Source: Wickerhamiella versatilis (lineage: Eukaryota). From it: a stretch of DNA of 64,000 nucleotides. A program made the position numbers and the translations under genes. Below are positions 33,443-64,000 of the stretch, one piece after another; the stretch's first letter is position 1, and every line of letters starts with the position of its first letter. The stretch lies in contig JAQOWU010000007.1 of NCBI GenBank assembly GCA_030867685.1, forward strand, positions 2,542,001-2,606,000. Direction: 5' to 3'. The notes under the pieces are model-generated. The model did no database searches. It saw nothing but the letters and a program-made list of their open reading frames with translations, and had not been told where the DNA came from.

Positions 33443-34897
33443 TTAGTTTGGAAGCCATACTGGCTTGCTACTCCCTAGCTCGGGCGTCGTCCCGCCCCAT
33501 TTTGGAGGCGTTTCAGTCATTTTAATGACAGGTCCTAGACTTTTCAGGTCTCCGAGGTAGGTTCCTTTATCAATGTGTGCATATTCATCAAACTCATATT
33601 GTTTCAACTTCTCGTCTGATTCCAAGAAGTCGTTCTTAAGGCCTTGTCTCTGTAAAAGCATAGCCGCTTGACAGAGTGATACTTTCACTGTATAACTGCC
33701 GCCCTCCTTAGCGCGCCGAGCCAATGCAACCATCACACCAAAACTTCCTAAGAAGCCAGCAAGAAAGTCGCATGCAAATACGGGTGTTAGTTGAGGTCCA
33801 TCTGCTCCTGTTGAAACTCCTTGGGTATGGCACATGCCAGTTACAGCCTGTGCCACCTGATCCCAACCAGCCCGGTCATGAAAAGGGCCACCGGAGCCGA
33901 AGCAGTTCACAGAGAGATGGACAATTCCGGGACGTAGCTTTACAAGATCTTCCACCCCAAACCCATGTGAAGCAACACGGTTTGGCCGGTAGCCATCAAT
34001 GAACACATCAGCTTGCGCAGCTAACTGCTTTAACTGCTCCTTCTCATCTGGTAAGTTGTAGTCGAGGAAGCAGCTCCTCTTTCCATGACTAGTATCTCGC
34101 ACGAACGCCGGCACTTGCGGGAGGTGTGGCGCAGTGACCATGAGTACATCTGCACCATGCTCTGCTAAACTGAGTCCCGCGGTTGGTCCTGCAAGAATCC
34201 TTGTTAGATCTAAAACTTTAATGCCCGAAAGAGGCTCATCACCTTCAGGTAGTGGAATTGGATCCGTATCTGAGACTTTGGTGATTTCCACTACCGGCTG
34301 CATTTGGAGGAAGCTCCCCTGTGGATGTGTGAGCCATTCTTCGGGTGTACGAATCTTTCCACCGCAAGCATGCACATTTGCTATGGCCTGTTCGAGCTCG
34401 TCAGACTTCCATTTTGCTACCGCGGCAGAAAGCGAGTCTGTCGAGCTCTCACATTGGAGTAAATCTAAAACACGGCGTTCCAGATGAGGCAGATTTGTGT
34501 GAGGAAGCAGCCAACGCCCATCAGCTGTTGGCCATGGTTGTGTCATTGCGACCATGTGCTTAAGTTCTGGCAATGGAGGTATAGGCTCGTAGGTCCCGTT
34601 TTCACTACGCCTGCACGTCATATCAGTTCCTGCGAGGGACGTTGCCGCAGCTATGCGCATATTGACTGAAATATTCTGGCGTCTACCTGTACGGATCTCC
34701 CATAGATCATTTGCAGCAACTGCCCTCGCCGCCAAGACCTCTGCACTAGTTTGGCCAACTTTAAATGGTGTGCGAAACAGATTATCTTTTCCTTCGAGCT
34801 TTACCTCGTCGATACTAATTGGAGAGCCGGCTCTTATAGCCATGAGCTCCGAAAAAGCGCTTGCAGTGGGGAAGTCATGAGACATGATTTGTAACAT
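33443..34897 (-). CDS. CaiB/BaiF family III CoA-transferase
   Basis: PLSGIKVLDLTRILAGP, HGADVL, GKRS, ADVFIDGYRP, GWDQVAQAVTG. Confidence 0.9.
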   Translation of the reverse strand: MLQIMSHDFPTASAFSELMAIRAGSPISIDEVKLEGKDNLFRTPFKVGQTSAEVLAARAVAANDLWEIRTGRRQNISVNMRIAAATSLAGTDMTCRRSENGTYEPIPPLPELKHMVAMTQPWPTADGRWLLPHTNLPHLERRVLDLLQCESSTDSLSAAVAKWKSDELEQAIANVHACGGKIRTPEEWLTHPQGSFLQMQPVVEITKVSDTDPIPLPEGDEPLSGIKVLDLTRILAGPTAGLSLAEHGADVLMVTAPHLPQVPAFVRDTSHGKRSCFLDYNLPDEKEQLKQLAAQADVFIDGYRPNRVASHGFGVEDLVKLRPGIVHLSVNCFGSGGPFHDRAGWDQVAQAVTGMCHTQGVSTGADGPQLTPVFACDFLAGFLGSFGVMVALARRAKEGGSYTVKVSLCQAAMLLQRQGLKNDFLESDEKLKQYEFDEYAHIDKGTYLGDLKSLGPVIKMTETPPKWGGTTPELGSSKPVWLPN

Positions 34898-35276: not shown

Positions 35277-35297
35277 ACAATGCAAGATACCACTTCA
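35277..35297 (+). repeat. 41-bp repeat fragment overlapping the first ATG of the orphan ORF
   Basis: acaATGcaagataccacttca. Confidence 0.7.
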
Positions 35298-37199
35298 ATT
35301 GTGATTGCAAGTATTTCTGCATGGATTAATCAATATGATCGGTCCCTTTACCTTTTGCTTTATTTGATGATGATATTTAAACACCTTTTCACTTATGATC
35401 AGGGGGAATTCGCTGATATTGACTACTTTGGAAAATGGAGATACCACGGGAAATTCTTTCGGAGTTGCCATATTGCGTTTTCCGATATGACACTTTCACA
35501 ACTTTCTTTCTGTATTTTATCTGCAATACTGGTTGTATTTGGAGACAGAATGCCACATTTTGTAGGTATGCTTCTGCTTTCTTCACTGCAATTATGTGGC
35601 TATTTGTCTACCATTCTTTTCGTGAGTTCAAATCAAGACAGCGCGCCAGCAGTTCGTGAGACACTCGAGTGCACGGCAGTAATATATGCCACATTGAACA
35701 TACTCCCTACAGAAGTGAGAGCTGGCTTGTGTTATTGGCGCCATCTTTATTTGACCCTAACTCTTGTTTCCAGCTTTCTATGGGTAGTGTCAATGATGCA
35801 AAATACATTCAACCGAAGCTACTTGGCTGATATCTTACCTTTGGGAGGGGTTTGCGCCACCTCGCTCATAATATTAGGACTCAAGGCGGTTGGGGTTCAA
35901 AGCACACTAACCGACAGATATGACATGTTGCTGAATATTTTTAACTTATTATGGATATTTATTAGTACCATTACTCTGTATTCACAACTGTTTACGGAAG
36001 CCCCTGCATCTACTGATAACAAATACCGCCCATGGTATTGGTTCGCACGCAATGATTGCCGACTTGGCTGTTATCTCGATTTTATTCCCTTTAGACCTAG
36101 AATGGCTTGGGTATATTCCATCTTATCATGCGTCACGACAATGTATACTTTCAATTTACTCAGCTCCTGGCGTGGTGAGTTTGAATCTCCAGAACAAATT
36201 ACTGGTGAATATTCGGAAAGAGGCGTTATGGAAGGACGAAGTTTGGATTATTGGCTTTATTTCATGACTGTTTTTGCATTAGTCGGATACAGTTACATTC
36301 ACGTGTACGTATATCTACCGGTGAAAAGGGCCTATAGACGGTGGCATAATCCGACCATAGATGATGTTACGTATGATAATGACACCATCGATCATGATGA
36401 TGTCAAAGATGATGGTTCCAGCGATGATGCAGTATCTGTATCAAGCGCCGACGATCCTTATTGGAAATTTTACTTTCCGGCGAGTCGATACAGAGAAAAC
36501 TTTAGCACTATATTAATATTCGGCGATTGGATTCTTCTATATTTTGCATCTATGCTAATGTCTTTTGAATGCTCTATTCCCGGTGATCTTATTGTTGTAC
36601 CACTTTTGTTACTTGAGATGACCGGGTATATTGCAACGATTTCGTTAGCTCCAGTTTTTCGCTCGTCGGATATGAGTCGCTATATATTAACACATGTGAG
36701 CATTCACAGCGCTTTTCTCAATGTGCTATCGCCGTACAGCAAGTATTGTCTTTCTCAATGGAAAAATCTTTTTTTGATTCTTTCAGAACTAACTGCAAAA
36801 GTTTTTTTCATCTTGCAATCGTATTCAATGAATAACATGTTGAACAATGCGACCTTATATTTGATGTTATGTGCTCTGATGGTGGCAGAGGGGCTTGGGG
36901 TGGTCATGGTGTTAGGGTATTTGAATAACGATAAAGTCATCGGGAAGATATTATTGAAGAAAGTAATTACTTATCTTTATGGATATGACTGCGGGTTTTT
37001 TTTTGTCTCAGTTTGTTTTGAGATTGGCCATAATATATTATCCGAACGAGACATCCCTGTATTTTTCAAGAAATTCTGTCGAATTGCGATTGGGTCTATC
37101 ATGTTTCACCTTGGGCCAATGCTCATGTATAGTCTTCTGAGTACCTGGTACCTCCAGTATGAAAATAATACTGGACAACAAAAGCAGTTTTATATATGA
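35280..37199 (+). CDS. Orphan polytopic membrane protein with internal duplication
   Basis: 639-aa ORF with many TM segments; two homologous halves separated by an acidic linker; start uncertain. Confidence 0.75.
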   Translation: MQDTTSIVIASISAWINQYDRSLYLLLYLMMIFKHLFTYDQGEFADIDYFGKWRYHGKFFRSCHIAFSDMTLSQLSFCILSAILVVFGDRMPHFVGMLLLSSLQLCGYLSTILFVSSNQDSAPAVRETLECTAVIYATLNILPTEVRAGLCYWRHLYLTLTLVSSFLWVVSMMQNTFNRSYLADILPLGGVCATSLIILGLKAVGVQSTLTDRYDMLLNIFNLLWIFISTITLYSQLFTEAPASTDNKYRPWYWFARNDCRLGCYLDFIPFRPRMAWVYSILSCVTTMYTFNLLSSWRGEFESPEQITGEYSERGVMEGRSLDYWLYFMTVFALVGYSYIHVYVYLPVKRAYRRWHNPTIDDVTYDNDTIDHDDVKDDGSSDDAVSVSSADDPYWKFYFPASRYRENFSTILIFGDWILLYFASMLMSFECSIPGDLIVVPLLLLEMTGYIATISLAPVFRSSDMSRYILTHVSIHSAFLNVLSPYSKYCLSQWKNLFLILSELTAKVFFILQSYSMNNMLNNATLYLMLCALMVAEGLGVVMVLGYLNNDKVIGKILLKKVITYLYGYDCGFFFVSVCFEIGHNILSERDIPVFFKKFCRIAIGSIMFHLGPMLMYSLLSTWYLQYENNTGQQKQFYI

Positions 37200-48744: not shown

Positions 48745-50270
48745 ATGCTTGACGAGAAACCGGTAATTATTGCATGTGCATGTCCATTCTAAGGAGATGT
48801 CTCGCCCATCCTGGAGCTTAGTCGCGTTCTCATTTGTCGGGGATACGAAGTAACGGTAGTAACAGGGACGACATTCAAAAATAAGGTAGAAGCAATTGGT
48901 GCTAACTTTGTGCCTCTCAAAGGCAGGGCGGACGTTTCAGAGTATGATTTCAACAGCAGATTTGCCGGTCGTTTAGAAGTTCCTCCTGGATTGCCTCGTC
49001 TTAGTTTTGATTTTCGTGAAATATTCATTGGGGCATTGGTTGAGCAGTATGATGCGTTACAGATAGCGATGAGAATTGCACATCGGGAAAAAACAGTGGT
49101 AGTGTCTCAGATGTTTTTTCACAGGCGTTCATCCTCTCAAGCTTGGCGCTCCAGGCATTAAGCCTGATGGACTCATCACTATTGGTATATGTCCAATTCT
49201 GGGACATAGTCTTGAGGCTCAAAGTAGCATGAGAGTGAATGATAACACTGCACATAAGTTGGGAGAATCCCAGGTGAATGGCATTAAAGGAGCATCAGAC
49301 CAATATTTTGCACCTGCCCACAGCAAGCATGTTGAGCTTTCGAAACAAACCGGCTGCAAGAAGCACCCACGATATTTAATGGAACAGAGTTGCTATGGTG
49401 GAGACGTTTGCCTCCAGCTGTGCTCTCCATCCTTCGAATACCCACTAACCAGCCTGCAGACCCCTACTGTTAAGTTTGCAGGTCCATTACCTTAACCCGC
49501 GACCCCTATATCTTCCAGTGTTCCAGAATGGTGGATCAGATGCTTTCTGCTCGCAAAGTTGTCATGGTTTCACAGGGAACAATTGCCACCGACTATACCC
49601 ATCTGGCTATTCCCACCTTGGAGGCTCTGAAGTCTGAATCAGACATATTTGTTGTCGCTCTCCTTGGCCGTCGTGGAGCCACGTTATCTGAAAACTATCA
49701 AGTACCGTCAAATGCCCTGGTCCTGGATTTTTTCCCATATCAACTTTTGTTTTCTCTCATGCCGATGCATTCGTTAGCAACGCTGGATATGGGGGAGTTC
49801 AGCAGAGCATCTGTCATGGTGTGCCAATGGTGCTGGCAGGATCCACAGAGGACAAACCATTCGTTGCTGAACGGGCTGAATGGGCTGGTGTAGGTATCAG
49901 TCTCAGGACAGGAGAGCCCTCTTCAGAGCAGATAAAACATGCAATCGACCAGATCTTGAGCCAACAGAAATATCGACAGCGTATTGATGAAATCAAGAAG
50001 GAAATAGTGGATTACAATTGTCATGATATTCTGGAAGATACAATTAAGGAAATGGTTTATTCAAGTTATGTAAATGCTGCACGGGCGGAACAGGGGGGTG
50101 AGGGTGGTTTCGAGACGTTTATGCCATTGACAGAGCGCACATTAGGTGAGCTCGGCAAGATATTGACCCATTATAAGTGCCAAATTTGTAGTGCTGAAGT
50201 TCAACTGGAAGAAGAAGAGCACAAATGTCACAGCATGCTTCAAGAATATATAGGAGATACAACCACCTAA
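48745..50270 (+). pseudogene. GT1 UDP-glucosyltransferase pseudogene resembling Starmerella sophorolipid UgtA1/UgtB1
   Basis: MLDEKPVIIACACPF*GDV.PIL...RGYEVTVVTG..F..KV...GA.FVPLKGRAD; LQLCSPSFE; WW..MLSARKVVMVSQGT; EDKPFVA.RAEWAGVG. Several stops and frameshifts. Confidence 0.85.
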
Positions 50271-50429
50271 ACCCGATTCCACATGCCTAACCGTTGGATC
50301 TTGACAAGCAATGGATGCTTAGACCAGATTATTGATTTTCCTGCAACTAGTGTAACCGCCTAAAACTCTTTTTGGACACAGCAACCCATCAAATATAGGT
50401 TCGGTCGGATAGTCAACGGGCCGATGTGT

Positions 50430-50492
50430 CTGGTTGGACAATGCAAGATAGCCCACATCACTACCTGAGACTGATCGGGTGATGCAAGATAG
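50430..50492 (+). repeat. Tandem ~1.5-mer of the 41-bp repeat
   Basis: ctggttggacaatgcaagatagcccacat-cactacctgagactgatcgggtgatgcaagatag. Confidence 0.95.
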
Positions 50493-51369
50493 AAGACTCC
50501 CTATATTAAATTGGTCTACTAATTCATCTTATTATTTTCGGAGAATTTTCTCAGTCTTTTGGCTCTTACGTACTCAACTCCTGTCTGAAGGTGATGAACC
50601 AGACTTATGATGACATCGCTCGAAAAGCAAGCAAATATTATCCAGAGAATTTTGTAAGATAGCAACATTGCTGCAATCATCAAAAATATACCAGCAACAG
50701 TATCTATGGCAAATGTCGTGGGCTGCGTTGAGCAAAGAGGTCAGATGGAGAGTAAGGACGATAAGAGCCTGGATTCTGAGCCTAGGCATTCTGGTTAACT
50801 TAGGAGAGAGGACTTCTTTCCGGTAGCATTTTTTGTTTCTCAGAAATGTCAAGTACTTATGACCTCGATTCCCTAGTTTACATCCGTTGCATTATACTAA
50901 TTCATAGACTTCTACTCTAGAGCTGTTGGTGAACCAATATTGGTCCTAGGGTAGGCTTTTCAATTACGCCATCAACCAGTGCTTCTCGTAGTCGGTAATC
51001 ATTTTCTGATATTTGCGTACGCTAGTATCAATCTGCGTGACTTGGTATTCGCATTTGTTCCTGTGGTGCTGACATATTGTCCGGCAGTTTAGTAATGTTA
51101 AGCTGCACAGTGAACTCCGGACCCGCATCACGTTTGTAGGTCCTTACCCATATCTGTGAGGTCGGAGGTAAACTACACTAGCAGAGTTTAACACCCAAGA
51201 TGAGGAAGCGTAAGGAAGAGAGACGCATCGTTGTGACTATATCTAACGGCAGAGATTTAGGAGAAGCTTATAAAGAGTAAGTGAGGTACCGAAAGTAGTT
51301 TTGCGAGGCATCAAATAACAAAGGAAACCACAAGATATATAAAGGTCATACCTGTGGTATATTGTAGTT

Positions 51370-51780
51370 CTAGATATCTGATCCCACTTCAGCCTCCTTC
51401 TGGCGTCTGGCAGTTTGTGCAATCCAATCATTAAAAGAGCCTTTGTAGTTATACCTTTGGACATATCCGTATGAGAGGGCAGCTCGCTCTGCAGCTAAAG
51501 CCCGGTTACCACCCTGACAATAAAAAAGTACAGGTCTGTCTGACAGGGGCTTTACAACATTGTATTTACGAACAAAATCAGAGGCCTCTAATCCCAGCGC
51601 TTCAGGATCTGATCGGAAAGGAACATTAATGGCACCAGGAACATGGCCTGAAGCATATTCGTCTGGCTCCCTCACATCAATAATGGTGATGTCTCCAGGT
51701 GTTTTGAGCCAATAACAAACATCATCGTAGCTCACTTCAATTGCTTCTCCAGATGAACGAAAATCAGTAGAAGGAGACAT
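51370..51780 (-). CDS. Single-domain rhodanese (RDL1-like)
   Basis: IIDVREPDEY..GHVPGAINVP, FYCQGGNRA, YKGSFNDW. Confidence 0.92.
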   Translation of the reverse strand: MSPSTDFRSSGEAIEVSYDDVCYWLKTPGDITIIDVREPDEYASGHVPGAINVPFRSDPEALGLEASDFVRKYNVVKPLSDRPVLFYCQGGNRALAAERAALSYGYVQRYNYKGSFNDWIAQTARRQKEAEVGSDI

Positions 51781-51924
51781 GGCTATTTGCTGATGAAAGG
51801 AAGCGGTAGGAAGGTCAACCAGGAATTATATAGAGTGAGATAAGCAATGCAGTGTAATAGGTAATATGATTTGTCAGACATGAGCATCTCTCACAGAACC
51901 CTAGCTGCAATAAGCGGTCAGCAC

Positions 51925-51956
51925 ACCCGAGACTGGTTGGACAATGCAAGAATAGC
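51925..51956 (+). repeat. 41-bp repeat copy
   Basis: acccgagactggttggacaatgcaagaatagc. Confidence 0.9.
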
Positions 51957-52162
51957 TCAATTAGTAGCACAGAATGCAGCGTGAAAGGCGACTGGGAAAT
52001 ACTATTTACCATGCACTGATGGACTGCTATCGTGGGTTGGAGCTTCTCTCTCTGCTATATGAATCTCATTAGACTGTAGTTCATGGAATCCATCAGAGGT
52101 ATCCCCTTGAGGGTTAAGCGCTTCTTCGAGCAGATATTGGCATATTTCAAGCCATAAATTGT

Positions 52163-52196
52163 GCTACCTTGCATTGTCCAACCAGTCTCAGGTAGT
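52163..52196 (-). repeat. 41-bp repeat, near-full copy
   Basis: gctaccttgcattgtccaaccagtctcaggtagt. Confidence 0.95.
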
Positions 52197-52516
52197 TCAA
52201 TTGCTTTGGATCTGGACTGATTAAGGCTTTCTATAACACCCCCGTATCAGTTAAGCCTCGGTGTCGGCCAATCAGCCAATCACAATGATGGGAATAAGTA
52301 GATATCGTAAAACGTAGCGTTAAGCTCAAAAACAGGTACGAAACCATCTTTAATATTTATTATATATTTCGTTGCATATCTGTCAGGTTAATATGAAGGT
52401 AAAAAAATAAAATTAGCGGAGTTGGGCATACACCGAATACCCTTAACCTCGATTAAGATAAACGAAATCGTACTTGGAACTCTGGAGATTGGTGTAATCT
52501 GAGCTCAGCATTTACG

Positions 52517-55030
52517 ATGCCTGAGGTAGGAACGTACGATCCAAAGTACTATGACCTTGTTAGACAAGATGTCCCAGTGACTGGCGACCCCCTTCCGGTG
52601 GATGCTAAGACAAGAGATAAACATGTCAAGCGCGACGAGCGGCTTATTCGTCTCACAGGCTCCCATCCATTAAACTGTGAGGCGCCTCTTTCGTTATTAT
52701 TTGATCAAGGATTTATTACACCTCACCAGCTTCATTTTGTTCGGAATCATGGGCCAGTCCCTGAGGTCTCTGATAAAGAGGCAGAAGACTGGACTTTCAG
52801 CGTTGAGGGAATGGTTGATAACCCACAAAAAATAAGCTTGAAGAAAGTAATGGAATTAGAAACAATCACATTGCCTGTGACACTTGTTTGTTCAGGTAAC
52901 AGGCGAGGTGAGCAGAACGAAGTCAAAAAAGGAAAGGGGTTTAACTGGGGATCTGGAGGGGTTTCAACAAGTTTATGGACTGGAACCTTGCTCAGGAACA
53001 TTATCAATATTGCAGGCATCAAGGATGGTGCACGCTTTGTTCATTTTGAAGGAGCGGAGGTACTTCCCAACGGTAACTACGGAACATCAATTCGCTTGGA
53101 AATAGTCATGGATTATCATAAAGCAGTTATGGTGTCATGGAAACAAAATGGACTTCCCTTAACCCCCGACCATGGGCGTCCTGTTCGACTTGTTATTCCA
53201 GGAATGATCGGAGGTCGATCAATTAAGTGGCTGAAGCGCATTATCCTGAGCGATAAACCATCAAGCAATTGGTACCATTACTACGATAATAGGGTACTAC
53301 CAACAATGGTATCTGATGAGCAAACAAGAAATGAAGATATCTGGTGGAGAGACGAGAGATACTGCATATATAACCTCAATGTTCAATCAGTTACAGTTTA
53401 TCCCGAACACAATGAGAAGTTGCTAAAGGAGCGAGAAGGGTCTTACAACATTAAAGGTTATGCATATGCTGGAGGAGGGGCACGTATAAGTCGTGTTGAG
53501 ATATCAATGGACCGCGGTCGTAACTGGCGTCTAGCGAATATACGATATCCCGAAGATGAATATGCAAAGCTTGGCATCACGCAACTCTTTGGAGGAAAAG
53601 TAGACTTAGACAAACGCTATCTCTGCTTCTGTTGGTGTTTTTGGAGTTTGAAAATCCCTATCTCTGATATTATAAGTGCTAAGGACATTGTTGTCAGAGC
53701 AGTGGACGAGAATATGGCCATTCAACCTCGAGATATGTACTGGAACTTACTTTCCATGGTTTCCAACTCTTGGTTTCGTGTTGCTATCGTAGATGAGGGT
53801 TCTAACGTTAAGTTTGAGCATCCTACGCACCTCCACCATACCGATGGCTGGATGGATAGAGTTCGTCAGAAGGGAGGGAATTTATTGGGGCAAGATTGGG
53901 GTGAGGATTCCTTGCCTGGAAGTCGGGAATCACAGCAACCTCCCAAGGAAGAAGTTAAAATGACTCTCGACGAGAAAAAGGATGTTGTGATCACTCGAGA
54001 GGAGCTTGCTAAACATTCTGGTGAAAATAACCCATGGTTTATTGTCAATGGCCAAGTTTACGATGGCACTAAGTATTTAAACCAGCACCCTGGTGGCGCT
54101 GATAGTATTATCATGACGGCAGGAGCTGATGCTACTGATGACTTCATGGCCATTCATTCGGATACGGCAAAAGAAATTCTACAGCAATTCCATTTAGGTC
54201 GTCTTGAGAATTCAGATGTTGAGAAGAATGGTTCTCTAGTTGATGAAATCGATGAAAGACCCCTTACAACTTTCTTGAATCCTAAAAAATGGAAGGCTGT
54301 AAAGCTTTTGAAACGGTCTGAGCTCTCCAGAGATGTTAGGCTCTATGAATTCGCTTTTGATACGCCAGATCAAACATCAGGTCTCCCTGTGGGTCATCAT
54401 ATCTTTTGCCGCATTAAGAATGCATCAGGACAGGCTATTGTTCGTGCATATACGCCATTGAGTGATCATCGAACAAAAGGAATACTCAAATTACTTGTCA
54501 AAATTTATTTTCCCACAGAAAATCTACCTGGGGGACGTATGGGGGGATTATTGGAACAGTTAAGTATTGGTGATGAGCTAGAAATCAAAGGCCCAATTGG
54601 TTCCTTCACATATTTTGGTAATGGCGAGTGTTGCCATAAAGGTGAGGAGATAAAAGCATCTTGTATCTATATGGTAGCAGGTGGATCAGGCATCACTCCT
54701 TGTTACCAAGTACTCAAGGAATTAGCACGCGAGGGTGATCCAACAAAAGTTATTCTGATGTTTGGTAATCAAACAGTTGATGATATTGTGTGTCGTGATG
54801 AGCTAGAGACTTTCGCGGCTAATGATCGAGTGAAAATCAAGTACTGGCTCGCGTCACCACCTCCCGATTGGAAGGGTGAGAAAGGATATATCACACCAGA
54901 TTATCTCGATGCTACAATTACAAATAAGGACTCACTTCTACTTGTTTGTGGGCCACCAGGAATGATCAATTCCGTGAAGAACTGGGTGGAAAAATCGAAA
55001 TATGATCCCAATCGGTTGGTGGTATTTTGA
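52517..55030 (+). CDS. YNR1: Assimilatory NAD(P)H nitrate reductase
   Basis: Moco domain (RLTGSHPLNCEAP, FVRNHGPVP, VCSGNRR), cytochrome b5 (HPGG) and FAD/NAD domain (RAYTP, GGSGITP, CGPPGM). Confidence 0.95.
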   Translation: MPEVGTYDPKYYDLVRQDVPVTGDPLPVDAKTRDKHVKRDERLIRLTGSHPLNCEAPLSLLFDQGFITPHQLHFVRNHGPVPEVSDKEAEDWTFSVEGMVDNPQKISLKKVMELETITLPVTLVCSGNRRGEQNEVKKGKGFNWGSGGVSTSLWTGTLLRNIINIAGIKDGARFVHFEGAEVLPNGNYGTSIRLEIVMDYHKAVMVSWKQNGLPLTPDHGRPVRLVIPGMIGGRSIKWLKRIILSDKPSSNWYHYYDNRVLPTMVSDEQTRNEDIWWRDERYCIYNLNVQSVTVYPEHNEKLLKEREGSYNIKGYAYAGGGARISRVEISMDRGRNWRLANIRYPEDEYAKLGITQLFGGKVDLDKRYLCFCWCFWSLKIPISDIISAKDIVVRAVDENMAIQPRDMYWNLLSMVSNSWFRVAIVDEGSNVKFEHPTHLHHTDGWMDRVRQKGGNLLGQDWGEDSLPGSRESQQPPKEEVKMTLDEKKDVVITREELAKHSGENNPWFIVNGQVYDGTKYLNQHPGGADSIIMTAGADATDDFMAIHSDTAKEILQQFHLGRLENSDVEKNGSLVDEIDERPLTTFLNPKKWKAVKLLKRSELSRDVRLYEFAFDTPDQTSGLPVGHHIFCRIKNASGQAIVRAYTPLSDHRTKGILKLLVKIYFPTENLPGGRMGGLLEQLSIGDELEIKGPIGSFTYFGNGECCHKGEEIKASCIYMVAGGSGITPCYQVLKELAREGDPTKVILMFGNQTVDDIVCRDELETFAANDRVKIKYWLASPPPDWKGEKGYITPDYLDATITNKDSLLLVCGPPGMINSVKNWVEKSKYDPNRLVVF

Positions 55031-55245
55031 AAGCCTACTATAATACTATAAGAATATTTCTTAGACTAAACTATTGAGCCTTGTAAAGATATCCTAGAAG
55101 AGCTTGGCAATTATATCTTTAATAAACGTCTGTTTGTTACAGTCCATGATATGTGTATGATGGTTTGATAATAAAGGGTTATTATGGGTAGTGCTTAGGA
55201 AAGGCCCAATATATCGATATCTAGTGTTATAACGAGTGGCAAGTC

Positions 55246-55274
55246 CTGGTTGGACAATGCAAGATAGCCCACTT
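55246..55274 (+). repeat. 41-bp repeat, 29-nt perfect part
   Basis: ctggttggacaatgcaagatagcccactt. Confidence 0.92.
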
Positions 55275-55920
55275 TGCTTGGTGCTTCGCTATATGATACC
55301 ACTCACTTCAGTGTTACTTTATTTCTCATTTTGATATCTTATAGGAAATTGATAGAACAAATCAAGTATACGGCTATTCCACTAGGAATACAACATATTC
55401 AATAGCATACGACAGCTTTTAGATAAATAGTAACAGAGGTCAACAATCAGAGATCTAAAACACCACAAGGCGATCAAGATGGGAGTGGCATTCAGAACAG
55501 TCGTGAAAAACAGATCCCAGGGAAAAGGCTCAACAATTTCGATGTTGAAGCCTCGCCGTTGCATCATATAGACTAAGTGGTCTATCCAATCGTTCGAACA
55601 ACAGGAGTTCAGAACATGTTGCATTGCCCAACTGGACCAACTACAAGATAGCCCGTTATCCCTATGTCTTTCCCACTCTGATGTCATTGACTCAGCTAAA
55701 TGTAATTGCTTTTTGCCATTAGCATAAGGCCAATAGAAGACAAGACTTCTCTCAGGTACCCTAGTATGTCCCATTCTCTGAAAATTATCGGTAGCATTTT
55801 CAATATCCGCTATTACGAAATAGAGCCCATCTCCAGCTGAATGCTGTTGAATCCAATTTAACGCGACAAAAACGAAAACGAAAACTAGATTTAATAACTA
55901 CTTATTTCAAAAAAGGTCAT

Positions 55921-58900
55921 CTATATCAGTCGAAGAAGATGCAAGCCGTTAGCATACTTACCGATCAAGGGCTTATCTATATATGGGCTCTGAAAATCTG
56001 AAGTAAACTTTTTCTGATGCAAAGCTTCCCAAAAGCGCCTTGTTGAAGCAATAGATCCACACGTAGGTTTTAATGGCTTCCTATAGCTGTGTAAAAGTGG
56101 CAATAAGGACGCAGATTGTTGCCGAAGCGGTAAATCATTGAGGTTGTTTTCAAATTGCTGAAGCCAATCCGAATACTCAGCTACACGCTCTATATCGTAG
56201 CCATAGGCAATCAACCAATCAACAAACTCATCTAGCCCAATCCCGTCGTCATGGGGATTCATCACATGATATGTAGCAAACCCCTCTTGTGATAATGCCA
56301 GCGAACAAATGGCTCTCGAAACAAAATCAACCGGTAGCCCATCATAGTGAGCCCGCTGTTTCATGCCCTCAGTATCTAATTCATAGAAAGAATGTGGTGC
56401 TTTTCCTGTAGCAATCAAGCTGAAAACAAGACGAGTAAACATATCTTGCTCATTCAGCTGGCCTGAGTATGTCGTATTTGCCAGTATCATTCCACACCGG
56501 AATACTGACACAGGAAGCCGTAATTGGTCATGCGCTTGTCTTAGCAAGACCTCACCTGCCCACTTACTATGACCATAACCACTGGCATAACTATTGTCAA
56601 TTTTTCGTGAAGGACACATGTCTATGACGTCTATATCCTCCGTAAAATTGTCACGTGATACACCGTTTCCAACTGCTACTGATGAAACATGCACAAACTG
56701 CTTGAGCTTTGAGGTAATCGCAAACCGAATTAATTCAGCTGTACCTACCACATTCGGTTCAAATAGCTGATCATAGGGCAGTACATGATTTACCATAGCA
56801 GCTGAATCGACGATCATATCGACATCGCATGATAGTCTCTGCCAGGTGTCATTCTCTAAGCCAAGTTGTTCTTCAGACTTATCACCAGCTACCACCTCAA
56901 GAGTATTAGTCGCTAAGTCACGGAAATGTGCTAACAGACTTGAATCGCCCTTATCAAAAGACCGATAGAGTCGGTCTAATCCCTCTGAAGCATTTTTCGC
57001 CCGGATCAAGCAAATAAGCTTACCTCCAATTCTTTCCAACTGTTGCAATAATTCGAAAGCAAGATGTCGACCAAGAAATCCAGTGGCTCCAGTCAACAGG
57101 ATAGTGCGAGGTTCGCCTTTAACATTAGGCAAAGACGAGGCGCGCAAAAGAGTTTCGCTGTCTACAAACTTGTCCAAGGCTAGGTCTGTGGAAAAAACTT
57201 TTTCTACATTCCTACCATGAATCGTAGCATATGTTGGTTTTCCTGTTCCACCGTTCTGCTGACTTTCGATATAATCCGCAAGTGACTGGAAATCTGAAGT
57301 AGGAGAAACTATCAAGGCAACGGGTACCGATATGTCATAGATTTCTTGAAGCATGTTAGAAAATGTTAAGGCAGAAAGTGAATCGCCGCCAATTTCAGTA
57401 AAATTCGATTTACCGCTCAAATTTTCTATGGAACCTAAGATCCCGATGGATACACGAATCACAGTTGTCAGTACTGATTTCTGCTCGATATCATGTGTAA
57501 GGTCATGAATCAACTTCCTTCGGTCCCCATCAGGCACTGCGCCCTTGATTTCTTCGGGTGGGATACTGGTATCTCGAAGGATGCGGCGCAAAATCTTACC
57601 GGATGCGGACTTAGGCACCTTATCAACAACGACAACGCCACCTGAAAGGTTTTTGTGTTGTGCAACCCTTTCCTTAAACCACCTAAGTATCTCGTTAACG
57701 TCTGTATCTGGTTGAAGCACCAAAAATGCCCGAGGGTGCTCAGTAGTCTGGGTGGCATCTGGAATGCCAACAACAGCAGCGTCTAAAACATTAGAGTGTG
57801 ATATTAGCACATTTTCAAGCTCTGCTGGCGCTACTTGGTGCCCTTTTGACTTGATAAGCTCCTTGATACGGTCAACAATTTGGAATTGTCCACTCTCATC
57901 CACAACGGCTACGTCGCCTGTCTTGAACCACCCACCTTCACTGAACGCCTCTTTTGTTGCTTTTTCGTCATTCAAGTAACCTCTCATGACCTGGGGACCT
58001 CGAACCCACAATTCACCCCTCCTTGAGTCCTTACCAGTTTCAGGATCGATGAGGCGAGCCTCAGTCCCAGGTAATAGCCAACCAACTGTAGCGGAGTCGT
58101 GTTCTGTCTCAAGCTGAGACCCTGAATGTGTACAGGGGGATGTTTCGGTAAGCCCATATCCTTGCAGAATAACGCAATTAGGAAATCTCTTCTTGAGAAG
58201 TGCTTGTGTGGATACTGACAATGGTGCGGCACCACACCTCAAATATCGTAGGTTCTGCTTGAGTTTAGGATAGTTATCCAGTAATGGGTGTTTTCCAAAG
58301 AGCAGCGCCATAGGTGGCACGAGCGTAATGACATCCACGTCATATTCGGAACACTTTTCGAGGAACGTGACAAGGTCAAATTTGGGAAAAACCACGATTG
58401 TTTGCACTCGGTAAACAGCGGCCCAAATGAAGGTGTTAAGACCAAATATGTGGCTCATTGGTAGTACGGCACCTACACAATGTTCACTTTTAATGGATGG
58501 GGTATCATGGTCGAAATACAGCTGGAGGATGTTTGTCAAAATATTCCTATGAGTAGTTATCACACCTTTGGGTAATCCTGAAGTTCCAGACGAGAAAGTA
58601 TAATATGCAGGATAATGGGCAGAATCTACTTCAACCGGTAAAGCCATTGGCGCCGAGGGAGCTTTAAGAAGGGCTCTAATTTTCGGTAGCAGTTCACTAA
58701 ACGTAACTATCTGTATCTCACTGACGGTGCCCTCTTTGATTGCCTCTCTGGCCGTTTGAGACCCCTCGTCAGATGTTATCAGAATACGAGGAGAAGTCAT
58801 CCTGAGTTGATGAGCAAGCTCTGTTGCATTGTACATAGAGCTAGCAGGACTCAGTATAGCTGCCAAGGCGATTGTGCCAAAATGAATCCCAGCCGTGTAA

Positions 58901-59148
58901 ATTGAATTTGGTGCGTATAAACAAACAACATTTCCTTGCGAAATACCATAATCATTGCGGAAAAGAGCAGCAATACGGAATACGAGGTCTTTGTACTCGC
59001 TGAACGTTATACTCTCTGACGTGATACCATCAACGTAAAGTACTCGGTCCAGTCTTTCTGAGGTTTGAAAGGGGGACTCGAAGAGTCTATTGATAGCATT
59101 TCCATCGGGAAATTCCGCTAATTCACCAAATGGGCATTTATAGATCAT
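55921..59148 (-). CDS. Carboxylic acid reductase-like A-T-R enzyme (fungal 4CL-like A domain plus actinobacterial CAR-type T-R)
   Basis: SSGTSGLPKGV, QGYGLTE, GWFKTGD, PKSASGKILRR; GGDSLSAL carrier motif; TGATGFLG, VNHVLPY, GYGHSKW, RAHYDGLPV. ATG at 59148. Confidence 0.92.
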   Translation of the reverse strand: MIYKCPFGELAEFPDGNAINRLFESPFQTSERLDRVLYVDGITSESITFSEYKDLVFRIAALFRNDYGISQGNVVCLYAPNSIYTAGIHFGTIALAAILSPASSMYNATELAHQLRMTSPRILITSDEGSQTAREAIKEGTVSEIQIVTFSELLPKIRALLKAPSAPMALPVEVDSAHYPAYYTFSSGTSGLPKGVITTHRNILTNILQLYFDHDTPSIKSEHCVGAVLPMSHIFGLNTFIWAAVYRVQTIVVFPKFDLVTFLEKCSEYDVDVITLVPPMALLFGKHPLLDNYPKLKQNLRYLRCGAAPLSVSTQALLKKRFPNCVILQGYGLTETSPCTHSGSQLETEHDSATVGWLLPGTEARLIDPETGKDSRRGELWVRGPQVMRGYLNDEKATKEAFSEGGWFKTGDVAVVDESGQFQIVDRIKELIKSKGHQVAPAELENVLISHSNVLDAAVVGIPDATQTTEHPRAFLVLQPDTDVNEILRWFKERVAQHKNLSGGVVVVDKVPKSASGKILRRILRDTSIPPEEIKGAVPDGDRRKLIHDLTHDIEQKSVLTTVIRVSIGILGSIENLSGKSNFTEIGGDSLSALTFSNMLQEIYDISVPVALIVSPTSDFQSLADYIESQQNGGTGKPTYATIHGRNVEKVFSTDLALDKFVDSETLLRASSLPNVKGEPRTILLTGATGFLGRHLAFELLQQLERIGGKLICLIRAKNASEGLDRLYRSFDKGDSSLLAHFRDLATNTLEVVAGDKSEEQLGLENDTWQRLSCDVDMIVDSAAMVNHVLPYDQLFEPNVVGTAELIRFAITSKLKQFVHVSSVAVGNGVSRDNFTEDIDVIDMCPSRKIDNSYASGYGHSKWAGEVLLRQAHDQLRLPVSVFRCGMILANTTYSGQLNEQDMFTRLVFSLIATGKAPHSFYELDTEGMKQRAHYDGLPVDFVSRAICSLALSQEGFATYHVMNPHDDGIGLDEFVDWLIAYGYDIERVAEYSDWLQQFENNLNDLPLRQQSASLLPLLHSYRKPLKPTCGSIASTRRFWEALHQKKFTSDFQSPYIDKPLIGKYANGLHLLRLI

Positions 59149-59214
59149 AAGGAGGAGTTGGTCGTTCAATCACAGAAAGACTGGTAACGGTTGTGAGGGG
59201 TGCTTATAAATCCT

Positions 59215-59240
59215 GTTGGGCAATGCATGATAGCCCACTA
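59215..59240 (+). repeat. 41-bp repeat, partial
   Basis: gttgggcaatgcatgatagcccacta. Confidence 0.85.
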
Positions 59241-59680
59241 TATAACAGGATTTGTCTCGACTTATCTTTGCATTCATAGATCATTTCAGATTAAATATGC
59301 ACACTTGCACTGGTGTATAAGCCATTGCCGTAATACAACGGTTTCGAAAGCAATGTTAAGCCTTCTTCACCTAGAAACATATACAGGTATGTTGACATCG
59401 ATTCACGAATAAGTAATTTTAATTGTTGGATGAAAAAAAGCAAAACATTCGTCCATTATGGATTATATATAAGTCTTTTAGGTGGATTTGGTGTTCCTTC
59501 ATATAAGGCTAATATGATAATTTAAGATGGTAGTAGGAAACATAGGATGCCATTTGACTACGTAATGACAAATAAAGTGAAGAAGGTTCCAGTGCCTAAT
59601 GGTATTCAATATAATAGTGAAGTCCAACTACATGTTTCCCATACAACAGAGGTTCCTACACTAAGAAGTAACGAAGAATA

Positions 59681-59699
59681 CAAGATAGCCCACTTCACT
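59681..59699 (+). repeat. Repeat fragment spanning the tandem junction
   Basis: caagatagcccacttcact; another fragment at 61623-61638. Confidence 0.8.
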
Positions 59700-62119
59700 T
59701 GGTTAATTGTAATCAAGACATATGACGCATACCGCGAGGCGGTGCTATAGTCACCTCAGGCTATTAAAATTGACATCAATATAACGATACTTTAAGTATG
59801 GATTGATTTACGCCACAGTTGTGAGTTACATGTGCATATACTGGCTTTTCCTACGGAAGGAGGTCGTGATATAGATCAAGGAATCTAAATTTAACACGAA
59901 GGGTGGAAGAATTCATTCAACGCTTGATATCTACTCAAATTGAGCGAGGAAGATGGCATCAATGCTGTCGTATCAAAGGGAACACTAGGGCCAGTGCACC
60001 AACATTATTGATACGTAGACACTCGCCTCAGTAGTTGGGCCGTCTAAATTTTTAAGGTATGACTCAGTCCTAACGTGTGACCAAGCCATCCGTGTTACTC
60101 ATCCGAGCACAACCTCACATAAATGTATAGATCCAACATCGGCAAAAGATAATTGAAACCAGAGCGGCCTTAATGTGATTAAATTTGACAGGAATGCAGC
60201 ATATAGATCCAGAAACCCCATTAAACAAAGCACGCATATCTTATTATGATTTACCCCCTTTCCTCATTACTTATTCATATATAAAAGGAACTTAATGAAG
60301 CGATATCGCTCACTTTCTTGGTTACACTGAAGGTATATCACGATAGCTATCTCACTCCTCAGCATCAGATTAGATCCGAACAAAAGTTTAGATATTCCCC
60401 TCATACTTTCTATACTGTACATTTCTGCGACGGTCTGCGACAGCCAGAGTTCAACCGCATAAATAATCATAACCGTCCATTTTCGTATGATATACAGACA
60501 ATAATAACAGTGATCTTAAAACTTCCTGCAACATCAGAGCTAGTTTGCAGCTCTAGATCGGGCATTAGTCATGGATATTTGTATGACCTAGGGTTTAGAA
60601 ACGCCCACCAAAAAAACCCGCATTAGGGCACTAAGACAAGCCTGGAGAATAAAACTGCACCTGACCATCTTAAAAGAGGCTCTAAAGACCACGATTGCGG
60701 GACGCTTATCCTGATTTCTCTTAGATTTTGACTTGCTACAATGTGTCGAGCAGAGAAGTTTATGCAAGATACCATTTGTAAATGCCTCAAATGCCTCATT
60801 GTCTTGTCCATCTCACCCATCCCATCATTAATGAGCTAGGTTAATAGAGGACATGATCGCCGGATTAAGCTCAATGTAACGTTAGTGCTTAGTGCTTTTC
60901 AATGTCCAAAAGCATAGTTTTTTATGGTACAGGTCAAGCTTACGCTGCCCTTTGATACACCTTAGGACATCTCGGGGAAACGAAGTGAAACGTCTAAAAA
61001 AGAAATGCAAAATTATCCAAGGTTTTCTAGGCATCTAGAAGCCACAAATCTCAGCAGTGCGTCCGCATCAAGGCCACAATCTCAAATCTACTGGGAAACT
61101 CCAATATGCACACCAAGAAACGACTAAAAGACTACTTTACGGTGGTTTTGTGAAAATTCAACATTACTTACAGCATAACTTGTCAGTTTTTGCCCATGTT
61201 CGTGTGGATGTGCCAACAGTAATATAACCCTACTCCATATGCAGGGATTTTCTAACTCCTTTGTCAGTAGGTGCACACCGATGAAATAGATATTGTTGTC
61301 GACAAGATTTTGACTTAGGGCGTGATGATAATACGGTGACAATACCTTTCCTAGTCAGTGAGTATCCTGTATAAAGGATAAGCAGCTTGATAACCGGTAC
61401 TCTACGTGTCATGGGCCCATCATATGGTGGCGTCCAAGTTGTGGATATTACATCAAACAAAAAGATCTATGCAATTAATCGCATGGTATTCAGGTAGAAC
61501 TAACGGTTTTCATGGTCTACTTCGTAACCATGGCAATACGGATTTCCATTTTATTCCTAAACGACTTGAAAAGACTCTGGTTCAGGCATTTTTTGACACT
61601 TTTCGCAAGGAGCTCAAGAAGAGCAAAATAGCCCACTTTAGGATATTTTCAAGTTAAGGGTTTTGAGTGCGCCATACATAACAGGAAAATAGGACTTGCC
61701 GTAATGAATAAGAAGACTGATGAGACGAGCCCGCCCATCCCACATAAAGATTTATTTTTGATTTGTTCATTTTTGTTATTTCCACCAAACCACTTACAGG
61801 CTGTAAGTAGAGGATGCCATTTGGGCGATGCAGCAAAATGTATATATAGTCAGTTTATACAGGGTACGGGGTTGCGCCCTTGCTGATTTTGCATATGTAG
61901 CCAGATGCTAAAGATCTCCTTCTGAGTATAGTAGATTGTACTTATAGACTATGTGTTAGGCGTAAAAAAATTTTTTGTGCGTTGAGCTGAAACTTCTGGA
62001 CACAGCAACTCTTATGGTAACGGAATATCTTAATTCGTTCAACATACAGCCTGCAGCTTACTTAAATACCAAAAAGAGTTTATAAAAAGCGGGAATTCTC
62101 AGCTAGGTAATATCGGAAT

Positions 62120-64000
62120 ATGAGTTCTTTGCCGACCGACCGAGTTCCAGCGGAAGCTGCGTTGGATAAAGTGCCCTCGGATTCATCTAGGTATGCTTCG
62201 CTTGATGAGAAGCTGTCTAAGAGTGATCCAGAGGAGATCCGGAGTTCGGACTCTGATGATGCGTATGTGGACAAATACGACAAGGGTGGTCACCGTGGTG
62301 TGATGCGTATTTCTGCTATAAATAGGATTTTGAATACTTACGGTACTATTAAGCTATTTGGCCGCGATATCCACACCTTGAGAATAACACTTCTGTTCTT
62401 CTTGTTTCTGCAAGGATATGTTACTGGTTTAGATGGTAACATGTCCATGGCGATGCAGCAACCACTCATCTCTATTTTTGGGCACAATGGTGATACATCC
62501 GCGGTTACCACTGTGAAGTCCGTGATTGCCTCTGCAGTGTTTATTCCTTATGCCCGCTTGTCAGATAGGGTCGGGCGTATGGAAATTTGGTTGGCAGCAT
62601 TGGCTCCGTTTCTTGCTGGACGGATAGCTACAGCGGCAACTCCCACATTTGCAGGCCTCTTCGCTGGTGTAGTTGTTGAGGAGTTCGGCTACGCTGCGTT
62701 TCGTTTTTTGTCGGGAATTCTCCCATCTGATATATCCTCTCTTAAGGACCATACGTTCACGATTAACATCTACGAGCTACCGGAAATTATCAACTTCTGG
62801 GCGGGATCGTACATTTCACAGTCCTTGATAGGTGCTGAAGCTAAGGAGTACCAACAACATGAAACCCAAATTCGATGGGGATTCGGTATGTTTACTATTC
62901 TTGTACCATTCACCACAGTTTTGCTAGCCAGTGTTTATCTCTATGCACAGTTCGTGTCGTACCGCCGTAAAGAACTACCCAGCCTGCGTAATCCCGACTC
63001 TGGAAAATCTTTTGCTCGGAGCCTATATGATCTTTTGAAAGAGCTAGATATCGTGGGTGTCATCCTGTATACCACGGGAATGGTTCTTCTATTCCTTGCG
63101 TTGAGTTTGGGTGGTGGTAAAGAAAACGAGTGGCATAGTGTACACATCATTGTAATGATTGTTATCGGTGGTGCATTGATACCTATCTGGGTTGTATGGG
63201 AAATGTTCTTTGCCACATCGCCGATTCTTCCAAAGCGCTACTTTGGAACCACATTCGCGTCTGCCATACTTATTATGTTCTTCGTCCGTGCCTCTATGTC
63301 AACCCTCTTAGGTCAAGGTCGTACGAATCTTCTTATCGCATATGGTCAATCCACCCAGCATACTCAATGGTTAAGTTCAATGGTTCTTTTCGTAGGTGCT
63401 ATTGTGAATCTCGTTATGGGCATTATTTTGCACTATTGGCCCCATCCTAAGTTCTTTATAATGACTGGTGGATATATTTTCTTGCTCGGCGTAGGTCTTT
63501 TTGTTAAGTACAGGGTGGACTACTTCGATAGCGGTATCCATGGATATGTCGGAGCTCTCGTTATTATGGGTCTCGGTGCTGCTTTCATCAGGTATCCCCT
63601 ATGGACTTTAGTACAAGCTTCTGTCCCTCACAAAGACATGGCTTCTGCTATTGGTCTTTTGATGTCTGCTTATCAGATTGGTGCCTCTGTCGGATCTTGT
63701 CTTGCTTCGGCTATTTGGCAAAACACAATCTTAAAGGATCTTTTGAAGTATGTTGGGCCTATCGAGGAAGTAACTTACGTGGACCCTAAAAAGAAGGAAC
63801 TCGTTAGTGTTCCTGGAAAGAAGTTTGCTATGCGATTCTTTCAAAATCCAAACAAACTCATGTCCGCGTTTAAACAAAAGAATGGTAAAGAAGTACATGA
63901 AGCTGTTCTAAAAGCTTATGAACACGGTAATTGGGTTACTGCGGTTGTTTCTGTTGCACTTGCTGGGGTTGTTGCTGTTTTGGTGTTTCTCCCATTCCCT
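62120..64000 (+). CDS. ENB1: Siderophore-iron MFS transporter, ENB1/ARN4-like (runs off the window end)
   Basis: Frame from ATG 62120, absent from the ORF track and in the same phase wherever checked to the end: FLQGYVTGL, TVKSVIAS...PYARLSDRVGR.E.W, AATPTFAGLFAG, RWGFGMF.ILVP. Confidence 0.8.
   Translation, partial: MSSLPTDRVPAEAALDKVPSDSSRYASLDEKLSKSDPEEIRSSDSDDAYVDKYDKGGHRGVMRISAINRILNTYGTIKLFGRDIHTLRITLLFFLFLQGYVTGLDGNMSMAMQQPLISIFGHNGDTSAVTTVKSVIASAVFIPYARLSDRVGRMEIWLAALAPFLAGRIATAATPTFAGLFAGVVVEEFGYAAFRFLSGILPSDISSLKDHTFTINIYELPEIINFWAGSYISQSLIGAEAKEYQQHETQIRWGFGMFTILVPFTTVLLASVYLYAQFVSYRRKELPSLRNPDSGKSFARSLYDLLKELDIVGVILYTTGMVLLFLALSLGGGKENEWHSVHIIVMIVIGGALIPIWVVWEMFFATSPILPKRYFGTTFASAILIMFFVRASMSTLLGQGRTNLLIAYGQSTQHTQWLSSMVLFVGAIVNLVMGIILHYWPHPKFFIMTGGYIFLLGVGLFVKYRVDYFDSGIHGYVGALVIMGLGAAFIRYPLWTLVQASVPHKDMASAIGLLMSAYQIGASVGSCLASAIWQNTILKDLLKYVGPIEEVTYVDPKKKELVSVPGKKFAMRFFQNPNKLMSAFKQKNGKEVHEAVLKAYEHGNWVTAVVSVALAGVVAVLVFLPFP

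Follow-up and report, generated by a model that had tools for sequence, protein, structure and literature searches.

A putative two-kingdom carboxylic acid reductase in the yeast Wickerhamiella versatilis: a host-type acyl-CoA ligase domain joined to a Mycobacteriales-type carrier-reductase

Introduction

Can a yeast gene be built of a host half and a bacterial half, and what would its product do? This question is raised by an open reading frame at positions 55921..59148, reverse strand, of a 64,000-nucleotide stretch of Wickerhamiella versatilis DNA (GenBank assembly GCA_030867685.1, contig JAQOWU010000007.1, positions 2,542,001 to 2,606,000 of the forward strand), which is called the window below. 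A sequence-only reading had taken the frame for a horizontally acquired carboxylic acid reductase (CAR) whose adenylation (A) domain had been replaced by that of a host ligase. In CARs, the acid is adenylated, loaded on phosphopantetheine and released as an aldehyde (PMC5826065, PMC10947199). The chimera was found to be real, old and under selection. Taken as a whole, a two-kingdom CAR with the history and chemistry proposed below is the best explanation of the sequence evidence and is considered likely.

Gene and domain organization

The frame (L001) codes for 1075 amino acids from an ATG, is free of stops up to the stop codon at 55921-55923 and is without sign of an intron. All of its parts lie on the reverse strand. 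An A core of yeast 4-coumarate-CoA ligase (4CL)-like/acyl-CoA ligase type (residues 1-430; 57859..59148) is followed by an A subdomain with the adenylation lysine K518 and Ser502 (residues 431-527; 57568..57858), by the junction and linker (residues 528-555; 57484..57567), by a carrier (T) domain of bacterial CAR type (residues 556-632; 57253..57483; PF00550) with the phosphopantetheine Ser590 at 57379-57381, and by a thioester reductase (R) domain of Mycobacteriales CAR type (residues 656-1075; 55924..57183). The R domain contains the NADPH motif at residue 686, Ser823, Tyr858, Lys862 and, at 56491-56493, Gly886 in the place of the CAR switch Asp. The Pfam families were found in the order AMP-binding (32-392), AMP-binding_C (443-518), PP-binding (570-627) and NAD_binding_4 (685-947). 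The translation retained the intact adenylation motifs, K518, Ser590, the NADPH motif, Tyr858 and Lys862, and the CAR- and fungal 4CL-type motifs quoted in the sequence-only reading were present in it.

In a search of solved structures, residues 556-1074 matched the CAR of M. marinum (5mso) with 634 bits, and three N-terminal pieces matched it with 8-18 bits. For residues 30-525 the best match was a plant 4CL (E 1e-77); an insect acyl-CoA synthetase and luciferases matched as well. The junction was located between residue 527 (window position 57568) and about residue 546 (about 57510), where the linker stands in place of the C-terminal tail of the host ligases with its peroxisomal-type signal. 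The second half of the linker aligns with the CAR helix preceding the T domain, its length is equal in the fusions aligned, and the residues ahead of the T domain are of CAR type and not of nonribosomal peptide synthetase (NRPS) type.

An AlphaFold2 model based on an 87-row alignment reached a mean pLDDT (predicted local distance difference test) of 87.7 and a pTM (predicted template modelling score) of 0.53; the modelled domains are confident, their relative placement is not. The modelled T-R part superposed on the CAR structure 5msv (peptidyl carrier protein and R domain) with a root mean square deviation (rmsd) of 1.5 A over 518 columns, and the modelled A domain superposed on 4CL. Since the model follows its alignment, this match serves as a consistency check and not as independent proof.

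Junction and copies of the fusion

The genome searched comprised 9.88 Mb in 8 contigs and contained four full-length copies of the fusion, namely L001, L002 (86%), L003 (53%) and L004 (52%). These four, at 52-100% identity, share the same junction. Four further fusions were found in databases: P0002 and P0003 (84-86%), P0010 (93% to L003) and the distant P0359, which is 55-58% identical to L003 by domain and does not occur in this genome. Thus, eight fusions were compared. A metagenome scan with P0359 gave 62 pattern matches with no relative among them. In a protein-cluster Atlas, only bacterial and ascomycete A-T-R clusters were found and no cluster for the fusion itself, a result that shows neither novelty nor absence.

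In DNA runs of two studies, single contigs crossed the junction without any difference (X3, 57072-57871; X6, 56782-57871); the junction is genuine, as had been claimed, and not a product of assembly. At least half of the sampled words were present in 14 listed sequencing runs, and eight studies besides the possible source were represented. Several of the runs carrying the sequence are food-fermentation metagenomes; no RNA run was among those listed. At position 58932 the window has T and both X3 and X6 have C, which changes Asn73 to Asp; this is either a strain difference or an error of the window.

Origin of the two halves

The A domain is 60% identical to L005 (G000:C8:3945552-3947138), a stand-alone ligase of the host which is the sister of the A core, and 44% identical to a second one, L006. 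Named relatives were ligases of Sugiyamaella, Trichomonascus, Geotrichum and Magnusiomyces with 41-46% identity. In a 105-row tree, from which P0239 and P0253 as near-copies of L005 and L006 were omitted, all seven fusion A domains included were placed inside the yeast ligases and apart from the A domains of bacterial 4CL-like proteins, of cyanobacterial proteins and of CARs. Compared with the A domains of the 117 bacterial T-R matches described below, the A half scored 80 bits at most. The stand-alone ligases mostly end in SKL-like tripeptides; the fusion chain continues into T-R and ends otherwise. By ancestry and adenylation motifs, the A half is classified as a yeast 4CL-like acyl-CoA ligase, and the assignment of the N-terminal 530 or so residues to fungal ligases in the sequence-only reading was borne out for residues 1-527.

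The remainder had been compared to actinobacterial CARs, and residues from about 546 to 1075 indeed fell among CARs of Mycobacteriales. The T-R half was 55-59% identical to 117 non-fusion matches listed of 5329, and those with an organism name belonged to Mycobacterium, Mycolicibacterium or Nocardia. In a genome scan, the best 80 of 390 T-R loci were nearly all from Actinomycetota by title. A 73-row T-R tree was calculated from 35 of these 80 loci, 10 of the 117 matches, 20 of 150 representatives and the 8 fusions. The fusions formed one clade (support 100), nested in a group with a support of 99 whose rows are mostly from Mycobacteriales. An R-only tree under a mixture model likewise joined the five fusions included (100/100) and placed them outside the main NRPS-terminal clade; the donor genus was not singled out. 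Because the T-R halves of all eight fusions form one clade, the trees show a single capture of linker-T-R from a Mycobacteriales CAR by a yeast ancestor. It counts against this placement that the yeast rows of the 73-row tree differ in composition, which can help to join them, and that the outgroup was not clean.

Host and foreign intervals are thus found in one frame, as defines a chimera by horizontal gene transfer (HGT), and the separate trees of the A and T-R halves uphold the cross-kingdom chimera; a full-length fungal or bacterial family to which both halves belong was not found. The proposed replacement of a CAR A domain by a host ligase is correct as to the chimera, and a single replacement seems too simple an account of its history. 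Two other origins were considered and discarded. Derivation of T-R from the end module of an NRPS, suggested by three shared residues, was unsupported by the linker and the R-only tree, and transfer of the whole gene from cyanobacteria or Actinobacteria was ruled out by the trees and by the split of the halves among the relatives.

A probable exchange within the A domain

Over the whole A domain, the L001 group was sister to L005 (99/99 and 96/99). L001 shares 19 rare residues with L005, all of them at residues 7-325, and 5 with the other fusions. One of these five is Ser502; at this position, Ser was found in all eight fusions and Trp in 35 of 42 stand-alone ligases. The A domain was split at residue 430, near the hinge between core and subdomain, a position chosen after the distribution of the rare residues had been seen. 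The core grouped with L005 (100/99), and a single clade of fusions was rejected by the approximately unbiased (AU) test (p-AU 0.027, LG+G4). In the subdomain the fusions formed one clade (96/92), and grouping with L005 gave a p-AU of 0.046. Site likelihoods switched sign along the domain; a permutation test on 16 rows, which allowed for the free choice of the breakpoint, gave p 0.0027 with the best break after residue 401 (LG+G4) and p 0.0066 with the best break after residue 420 (mixture model).

This discordance, in which the A core goes with a host ligase but the A subdomain with the other fusions, is new and suggests a second swap. In the simplest reading, the fusion arose once and its A core was afterwards exchanged with the L005 lineage. 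That the core of the L001 lineage was exchanged later, with a crossover in residues 400-480 and with retention of the older A subdomain, linker, T and R, is moderately probable from these alignments. Alternatively, the subdomains may have converged, or the transfer may have gone from the fusion to L005. Several points weaken the case for an exchange into the fusion: one clade of all fusions was not rejected over the whole A domain (p-AU 0.14 and 0.136), the subdomain signal comes from about 97 columns, mostly at residues 480-520, and might reflect convergent adaptation to docking on T, and the evidence may be read as an exchange with L005 in either direction.

Predicted function

The gene product is most likely an ATP- and NADPH-dependent acid reductase. 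The captured linker-T-R was joined, without loss of the reading frame, to a 4CL-like acyl-CoA ligase of the host directly past the last catalytic motif; this fusion removed the peroxisomal-type tail of the ligase, and the fused gene then multiplied near contig ends. Because the fusion point removes the SKL-like tail, the protein should be cytosolic. Once Ser590 has been primed by a host phosphopantetheinyl transferase (PPTase), the A domain would use ATP to adenylate the acid and would transfer the acyl group not to CoA but to the phosphopantetheine thiol; in the cytosol, NADPH-dependent reduction by the R domain would then set it free as an aldehyde. Judging by the ligase family, a medium-chain fatty acid or an aryl-aliphatic acid is the most likely substrate. 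The altered acid specificity expected in the sequence-only reading is plausible, and one may guess that the enzyme is used now and then to clear weak acids during food fermentation.

The residue types essential in NcCAR are His, Glu, the phosphopantetheine Ser, Tyr and Lys (PMC5826065). The last three are represented by Ser590, Tyr858 and Lys862, and the phosphopantetheine Ser was found in all eight fusions; as judged by eye, without alignment to NcCAR, His233 and Glu441 fall within the motifs where these residues would be looked for. The genome contained three PPTase-family matches with one EntD-type gene. The latter and a small ACPS-family PPTase are candidates for priming. The EntD-type PPTase (L091; G000:C1:795051-798323) is located between entB-like and entF-like frames, i.e. 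in a bacterial enterobactin operon in a yeast; such an operon is characteristic of the Wickerhamiella/Starmerella clade.

In the alignments, Gly886 takes the position that is held by D998 in the CAR of S. rugosus and by D984 in that of Nocardia. This switch Asp has been proposed to turn the R domain off after the first reduction (PMC5826065, PMC8024701). At this position, Asp was found in 116 of the 117 close matches listed and in 75 of 82 frames of the genome scan (four not covered). According to the alignment, all eight fusions have Gly at the 'stop at aldehyde' Asp of CARs, which is new. An R domain with Gly886 might go on to the alcohol, a suggestion made tentatively and with more doubt than confidence; otherwise host dehydrogenases would make the alcohol.

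Several findings speak against full reduction or against the proposed activity as such. Gly was present at the switch position in 45 of 149 distant relatives and is also found in aldehyde-forming fungal CARs (PMC5826065) and in aldehyde-releasing NRPS R domains (PMC8024701). The catalytic position is occupied by Ser823 in L001, with Thr in all 117 close CARs listed and in the other seven fusions. Loose searches of the genome did not pick up a Lys5-type PPTase, which is weak evidence. A broader scheme, in which T-R would be a reusable reducing cartridge, repeatedly fitted with differing host ligase cores by recombination near the core/subdomain hinge to give a small family of reductases with different acid ranges, with the shared Asp-to-Gly change allowing full reduction to alcohols, is regarded as unlikely.

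Selection, base composition and expression

From Nei-Gojobori counts, L001 and L002 differ by a dS (synonymous substitutions per site) of 0.41 with a ratio of nonsynonymous to synonymous rates (dN/dS) of 0.17 overall (A 0.21, T 0.17, R 0.12). For L003 and L004, dN/dS was 0.27 overall and 0.48 in T. The GC content at third codon positions (GC3) was 0.37 in the T-R half, 0.41 in the A half and 0.38 in the neighbouring nitrate reductase gene, compared to 0.82-0.91 in four bacterial loci. These values mark L001 as a gene under purifying selection with host-like base composition.

The RNA runs X22 and X24 are from one sample, and about one quarter of each was used (11 million records each). They share the species label with a DNA run that carries the gene; the sampled strain may not carry L001. 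It tells against a gene in use that depth was zero in 15 of 17 bins overlapping the gene in X24 and in 16 of 17 in X22. No RNA reads over the junction were found in either run of this sample. The remaining signal consisted of partial reads near 56321-56352 that run into other sequence and of a depth of 0.09 in one bin at the 5' end. The tail of the adjacent nitrate reductase gene was likewise bare. A short stretch upstream of the gene (59149..59211, reverse strand), which is common to L001 and L002 and contains a TATA-like word, is the putative promoter.

The gene is located 38-42 kb from the end of contig C7. Chromosome-end domains of this yeast clade are described as poorly expressed and rich in acquired genes, and a W. 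versatilis gene of PTHR24096, JCM_5958_gene_v001_05423, is labelled native, with 0.07-2.9 transcripts per million (TPM), near AIM2-like and glucanase genes (PMC13376923). Gene 05423 may be a copy of the fusion.

Alternative explanations

An assembly artefact or contamination might be feared, as assembly programs can be led astray by paralogues and by a dispersed repeat. This is refuted by the spanning of the junction in two independent studies, and the four copies with the same junction and the host-like GC3 also contradict it; its probability is considered negligible. It is very improbable that the whole gene was taken over in one piece from an unsampled bacterium, e.g. one with a cyanobacterial 4CL-like A-T-R protein, or from a fungus. 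Such a build does exist: 23 non-yeast proteins among 120 listed matches have a 4CL-like A domain and T-R and are cyanobacterial where named. However, their T-R parts are only 25-29% identical and their A domains are placed with bacterial ligases, and a 4CL-like A domain was found in none of the 117 close bacterial T-R matches listed and in one of the 150 T-R representatives, the yeast-type fusion P0359. Decay of L001 deserves more weight, though it is still rather improbable. L001 would be a near-silent chromosome-end duplicate starting to decay, whatever the paralogues do, and this fits the near lack of RNA reads in X22 and X24, the position close to the contig end in a clade with poorly expressed chromosome ends (PMC13376923), the Thr-to-Ser change at the catalytic position and an end branch that is the longest of its group in the A tree (0.10 vs 0.02-0.06). 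On the other hand, the 1075 codons are open at a dS of 0.41 from L002, dN/dS is low and even along the gene, Ser at the catalytic position is normal in fungal CARs (PMC5826065), and the gene DNA is carried by runs of eight studies besides the possible source.

A real fusion could also work via CoA, with the A domain making acyl-CoA, the R domain weakly reducing free thioesters and T being passive. The A domain is from a CoA-ligase family and has kept its motifs, thioester reductase domains can reduce unbound surrogates less efficiently (PMC10947199), and T is less constrained in the L003/L004 pair. The conservation of Ser590 in all fusions, the dN/dS of T in L001/L002 and the change of Trp502 to Ser common to all fusions are at odds with a passive T, and the CoA route is held to be improbable. 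The closest contest concerns the history of the A domain. A single fusion with an L005-like ligase, with fast evolution of the other A cores, or an origin of the L005 core from the fusion, would dispense with the second swap and is quite possible, if at somewhat less than even chances. The whole-domain AU tests do not reject one clade, long branches lead to the other fusions, and the best likelihood among three fixed trees was obtained with the L001 group plus L005 as sister to the other fusions, which fits either direction. Against it, the grouping found for the core is rejected by the subdomain and vice versa, and the permutation test upholds the change of signal under both models. One capture of linker-T-R, followed by an exchange of the A core, is preferred here.

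Flanking repeats and neighbouring genes

Repeat copies flanking the gene had been noted in the sequence-only reading. They are present at 55246, about 55620 and 59212 and are not specific to the gene. A new result is that they are pieces of a 41-bp chromosome-end repeat: an exact 29-nt piece at 55246..55274 (forward strand), a more degenerate one at about 55620-55655 and a degenerate one at 59212..59239 (forward strand), directly at the upstream limit of the likeness to L002, which ends at 59211. Further pieces were found at 59677-59699, 50430-50473, 51925-51951 and 52163-52196. The 27-nt core of the repeat occurs at 108 places of the genome with up to 2 mismatches (reversed control, 0), and six pieces were counted in window positions 50000-64000 (none in five shuffles). 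C4 (11.4 copies) and C1 (5.5 copies) terminate in tandem arrays of the 41-bp unit, and C8 (12 copies) and C7 (3.4 copies) carry such arrays in their first 4 kb; the arrays point outwards (C4:85228-85695, L102:1131-1356 at the C1 end, C8:3142-3635 and C7:1760-1899; all G000). The opposite end of C8 yielded no array. Contig depth of the array was about 1600 vs 28. Of the telomere arrays published for W. versatilis (PMC13376923), those of 410, 329 and 206 bp agree with a unit of 41 bp, and one of 121 bp agrees less well. The unit is very likely a telomere repeat of unusual length. An interpretation of the flanking copies as ends of an element was rejected, as they are dispersed pieces of the terminal array.

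A complete nitrate reductase gene (52517-55030, forward strand) adjoins the fusion gene and is possibly a second, chromosome-end copy; among the long open reading frames of the window there was no nitrite reductase or nitrate transporter. Two overlapping short frames at 49528-50270 (forward strand), the second with a match to the C-terminus of an EryCIII-like glycosyltransferase, look like a frameshifted glycosyltransferase gene. Judged by eye, bacterial-looking frames are located at 18740-19795, 32266-33027 and 33443-34897 (DmpA-like peptidase, short-chain reductase and CoA-transferase). Also by eye, the same pair of small secreted-looking genes was seen near both L002 and L003 (L094:7890-9797, L096:3-1897), and a frame at the end of C7 (L093:8638-9606) resembles window positions 35280-37199, as blocks common to chromosome ends.

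Comparison with known systems

The gene is a natural case of what engineers aim at, a CoA-ligase-type adenylation domain ahead of a CAR carrier-reductase, and an example of enzyme domain swapping across kingdoms. If the product is active, it would mark a workable junction after the last A motif, possibly also at the core/subdomain hinge, and would provide eukaryote-adapted CARs for making aldehydes or alcohols. With eight variants available in nature, the roles of Ser502 and Gly886 can be tested directly. For yeast evolution, the locus would illustrate how acquired DNA becomes part of host genes and is afterwards rearranged at the ends of chromosomes; screens for HGT with whole proteins may miss such genes.

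The fusion shares the A-T-R order with type I bacterial CARs (M. marinum, 5mso/5msu; Segniliparus rugosus, 5msp and 5msv; Nocardia iowensis, 5msc; profile NF041592). Linker helix, T and R are 48-59% identical and superposable (rmsd 1.5 A), and the phosphopantetheine Ser, the NADPH motif, Tyr and Lys are kept. It differs in having an A domain from another ANL family instead of the CAR/FadD9 lineage, Gly for the switch Asp, Ser for the catalytic Thr in L001 and about 100 residues less. With NF041592 it scored 851.5 bits, below the cut-off of 1300, with the best stretch at residues 546-1075 (control P0126, 2135 bits). By this comparison, it is not assigned to the type I CARs.

With the 4CL-like ligases of Dipodascales-type yeasts (L005, L006, Sugiyamaella 'Pcs60p', Trichomonascus, Geotrichum) and plant 4CL (5bsm, 3a9u), the fusion shares A sequence, fold and motifs. 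Unlike the fusion, these ligases stand alone without T or R, mostly have SKL-like ends and transfer the acyl group to CoA. The Aal enzymes of Yarrowia are peroxisomal fatty-acid ligases.

Fungal CARs of types II-IV (NcCAR, AtCAR, TvCAR), Lys2 and L007 have the A-T-R chemistry in common with the fusion, and fungal CARs also the Gly at the switch position and the Ser in the triad (PMC5826065). L007 (G000:C3:392013-397667), the A-T-R-R protein of this genome, is only 26% identical; types II-IV were compared by description. No fungal CAR was among the best listed matches of either half, the best T-R matches were bacterial, and in trees without type II-IV sequences the two halves did not group with fungal NRPS-like proteins. 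L007 itself is a 1292-residue A-T-R-SDR (short-chain dehydrogenase/reductase) protein whose architecture is that of the fungal glycine betaine reductases (family name from PMC10510592).

Cyanobacterial 4CL-like A-T-R 'thioester reductase' proteins (Nostoc, Calothrix; P0028 group) have the same build and are an independent precedent; with 35-41% identity in A and the low T-R identity given above, they are separate in the tree. The terminal R domain of an M. tuberculosis NRPS (4dqv), a four-electron reductase (PMC8024701), is 54% identical in R and shares Gly886, Ser758 and Ser782. The fusion differs from it in the CAR-type lead-in to T and in the position of the yeast R domain outside the main NRPS-terminal clade, 4dqv itself being outside the tree. 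Other T-R fusions are the P0028 group and P0496 and P0389, including a CoA-ligase-type A-T-R protein of 1038 residues and a ketosynthase-T-R protein whose T-R is 44% identical to that of L001. T-R modules are re-used behind many front ends.

A literature search by title or abstract start, with most subscription journals outside its coverage, retrieved no paper on a CAR in Saccharomycotina or Wickerhamiella or on a yeast CAR chimera. The accessible main text of PMC13376923 does not mention fusion, chimera, carboxylic or Mycobacter, and its readable supplements contain no CAR term (11 of 16 files; KEGG Orthology (KO) and PANTHER terms in 15 of 16). Chimeric genes of host and foreign parts are already known as a class from arthropods (PMC13389597). 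These HGT-chimeras share with the yeast gene a host and an acquired part in one frame and purifying selection; they differ in being from animals, and in the yeast enzyme the two parts would form one reaction chain.

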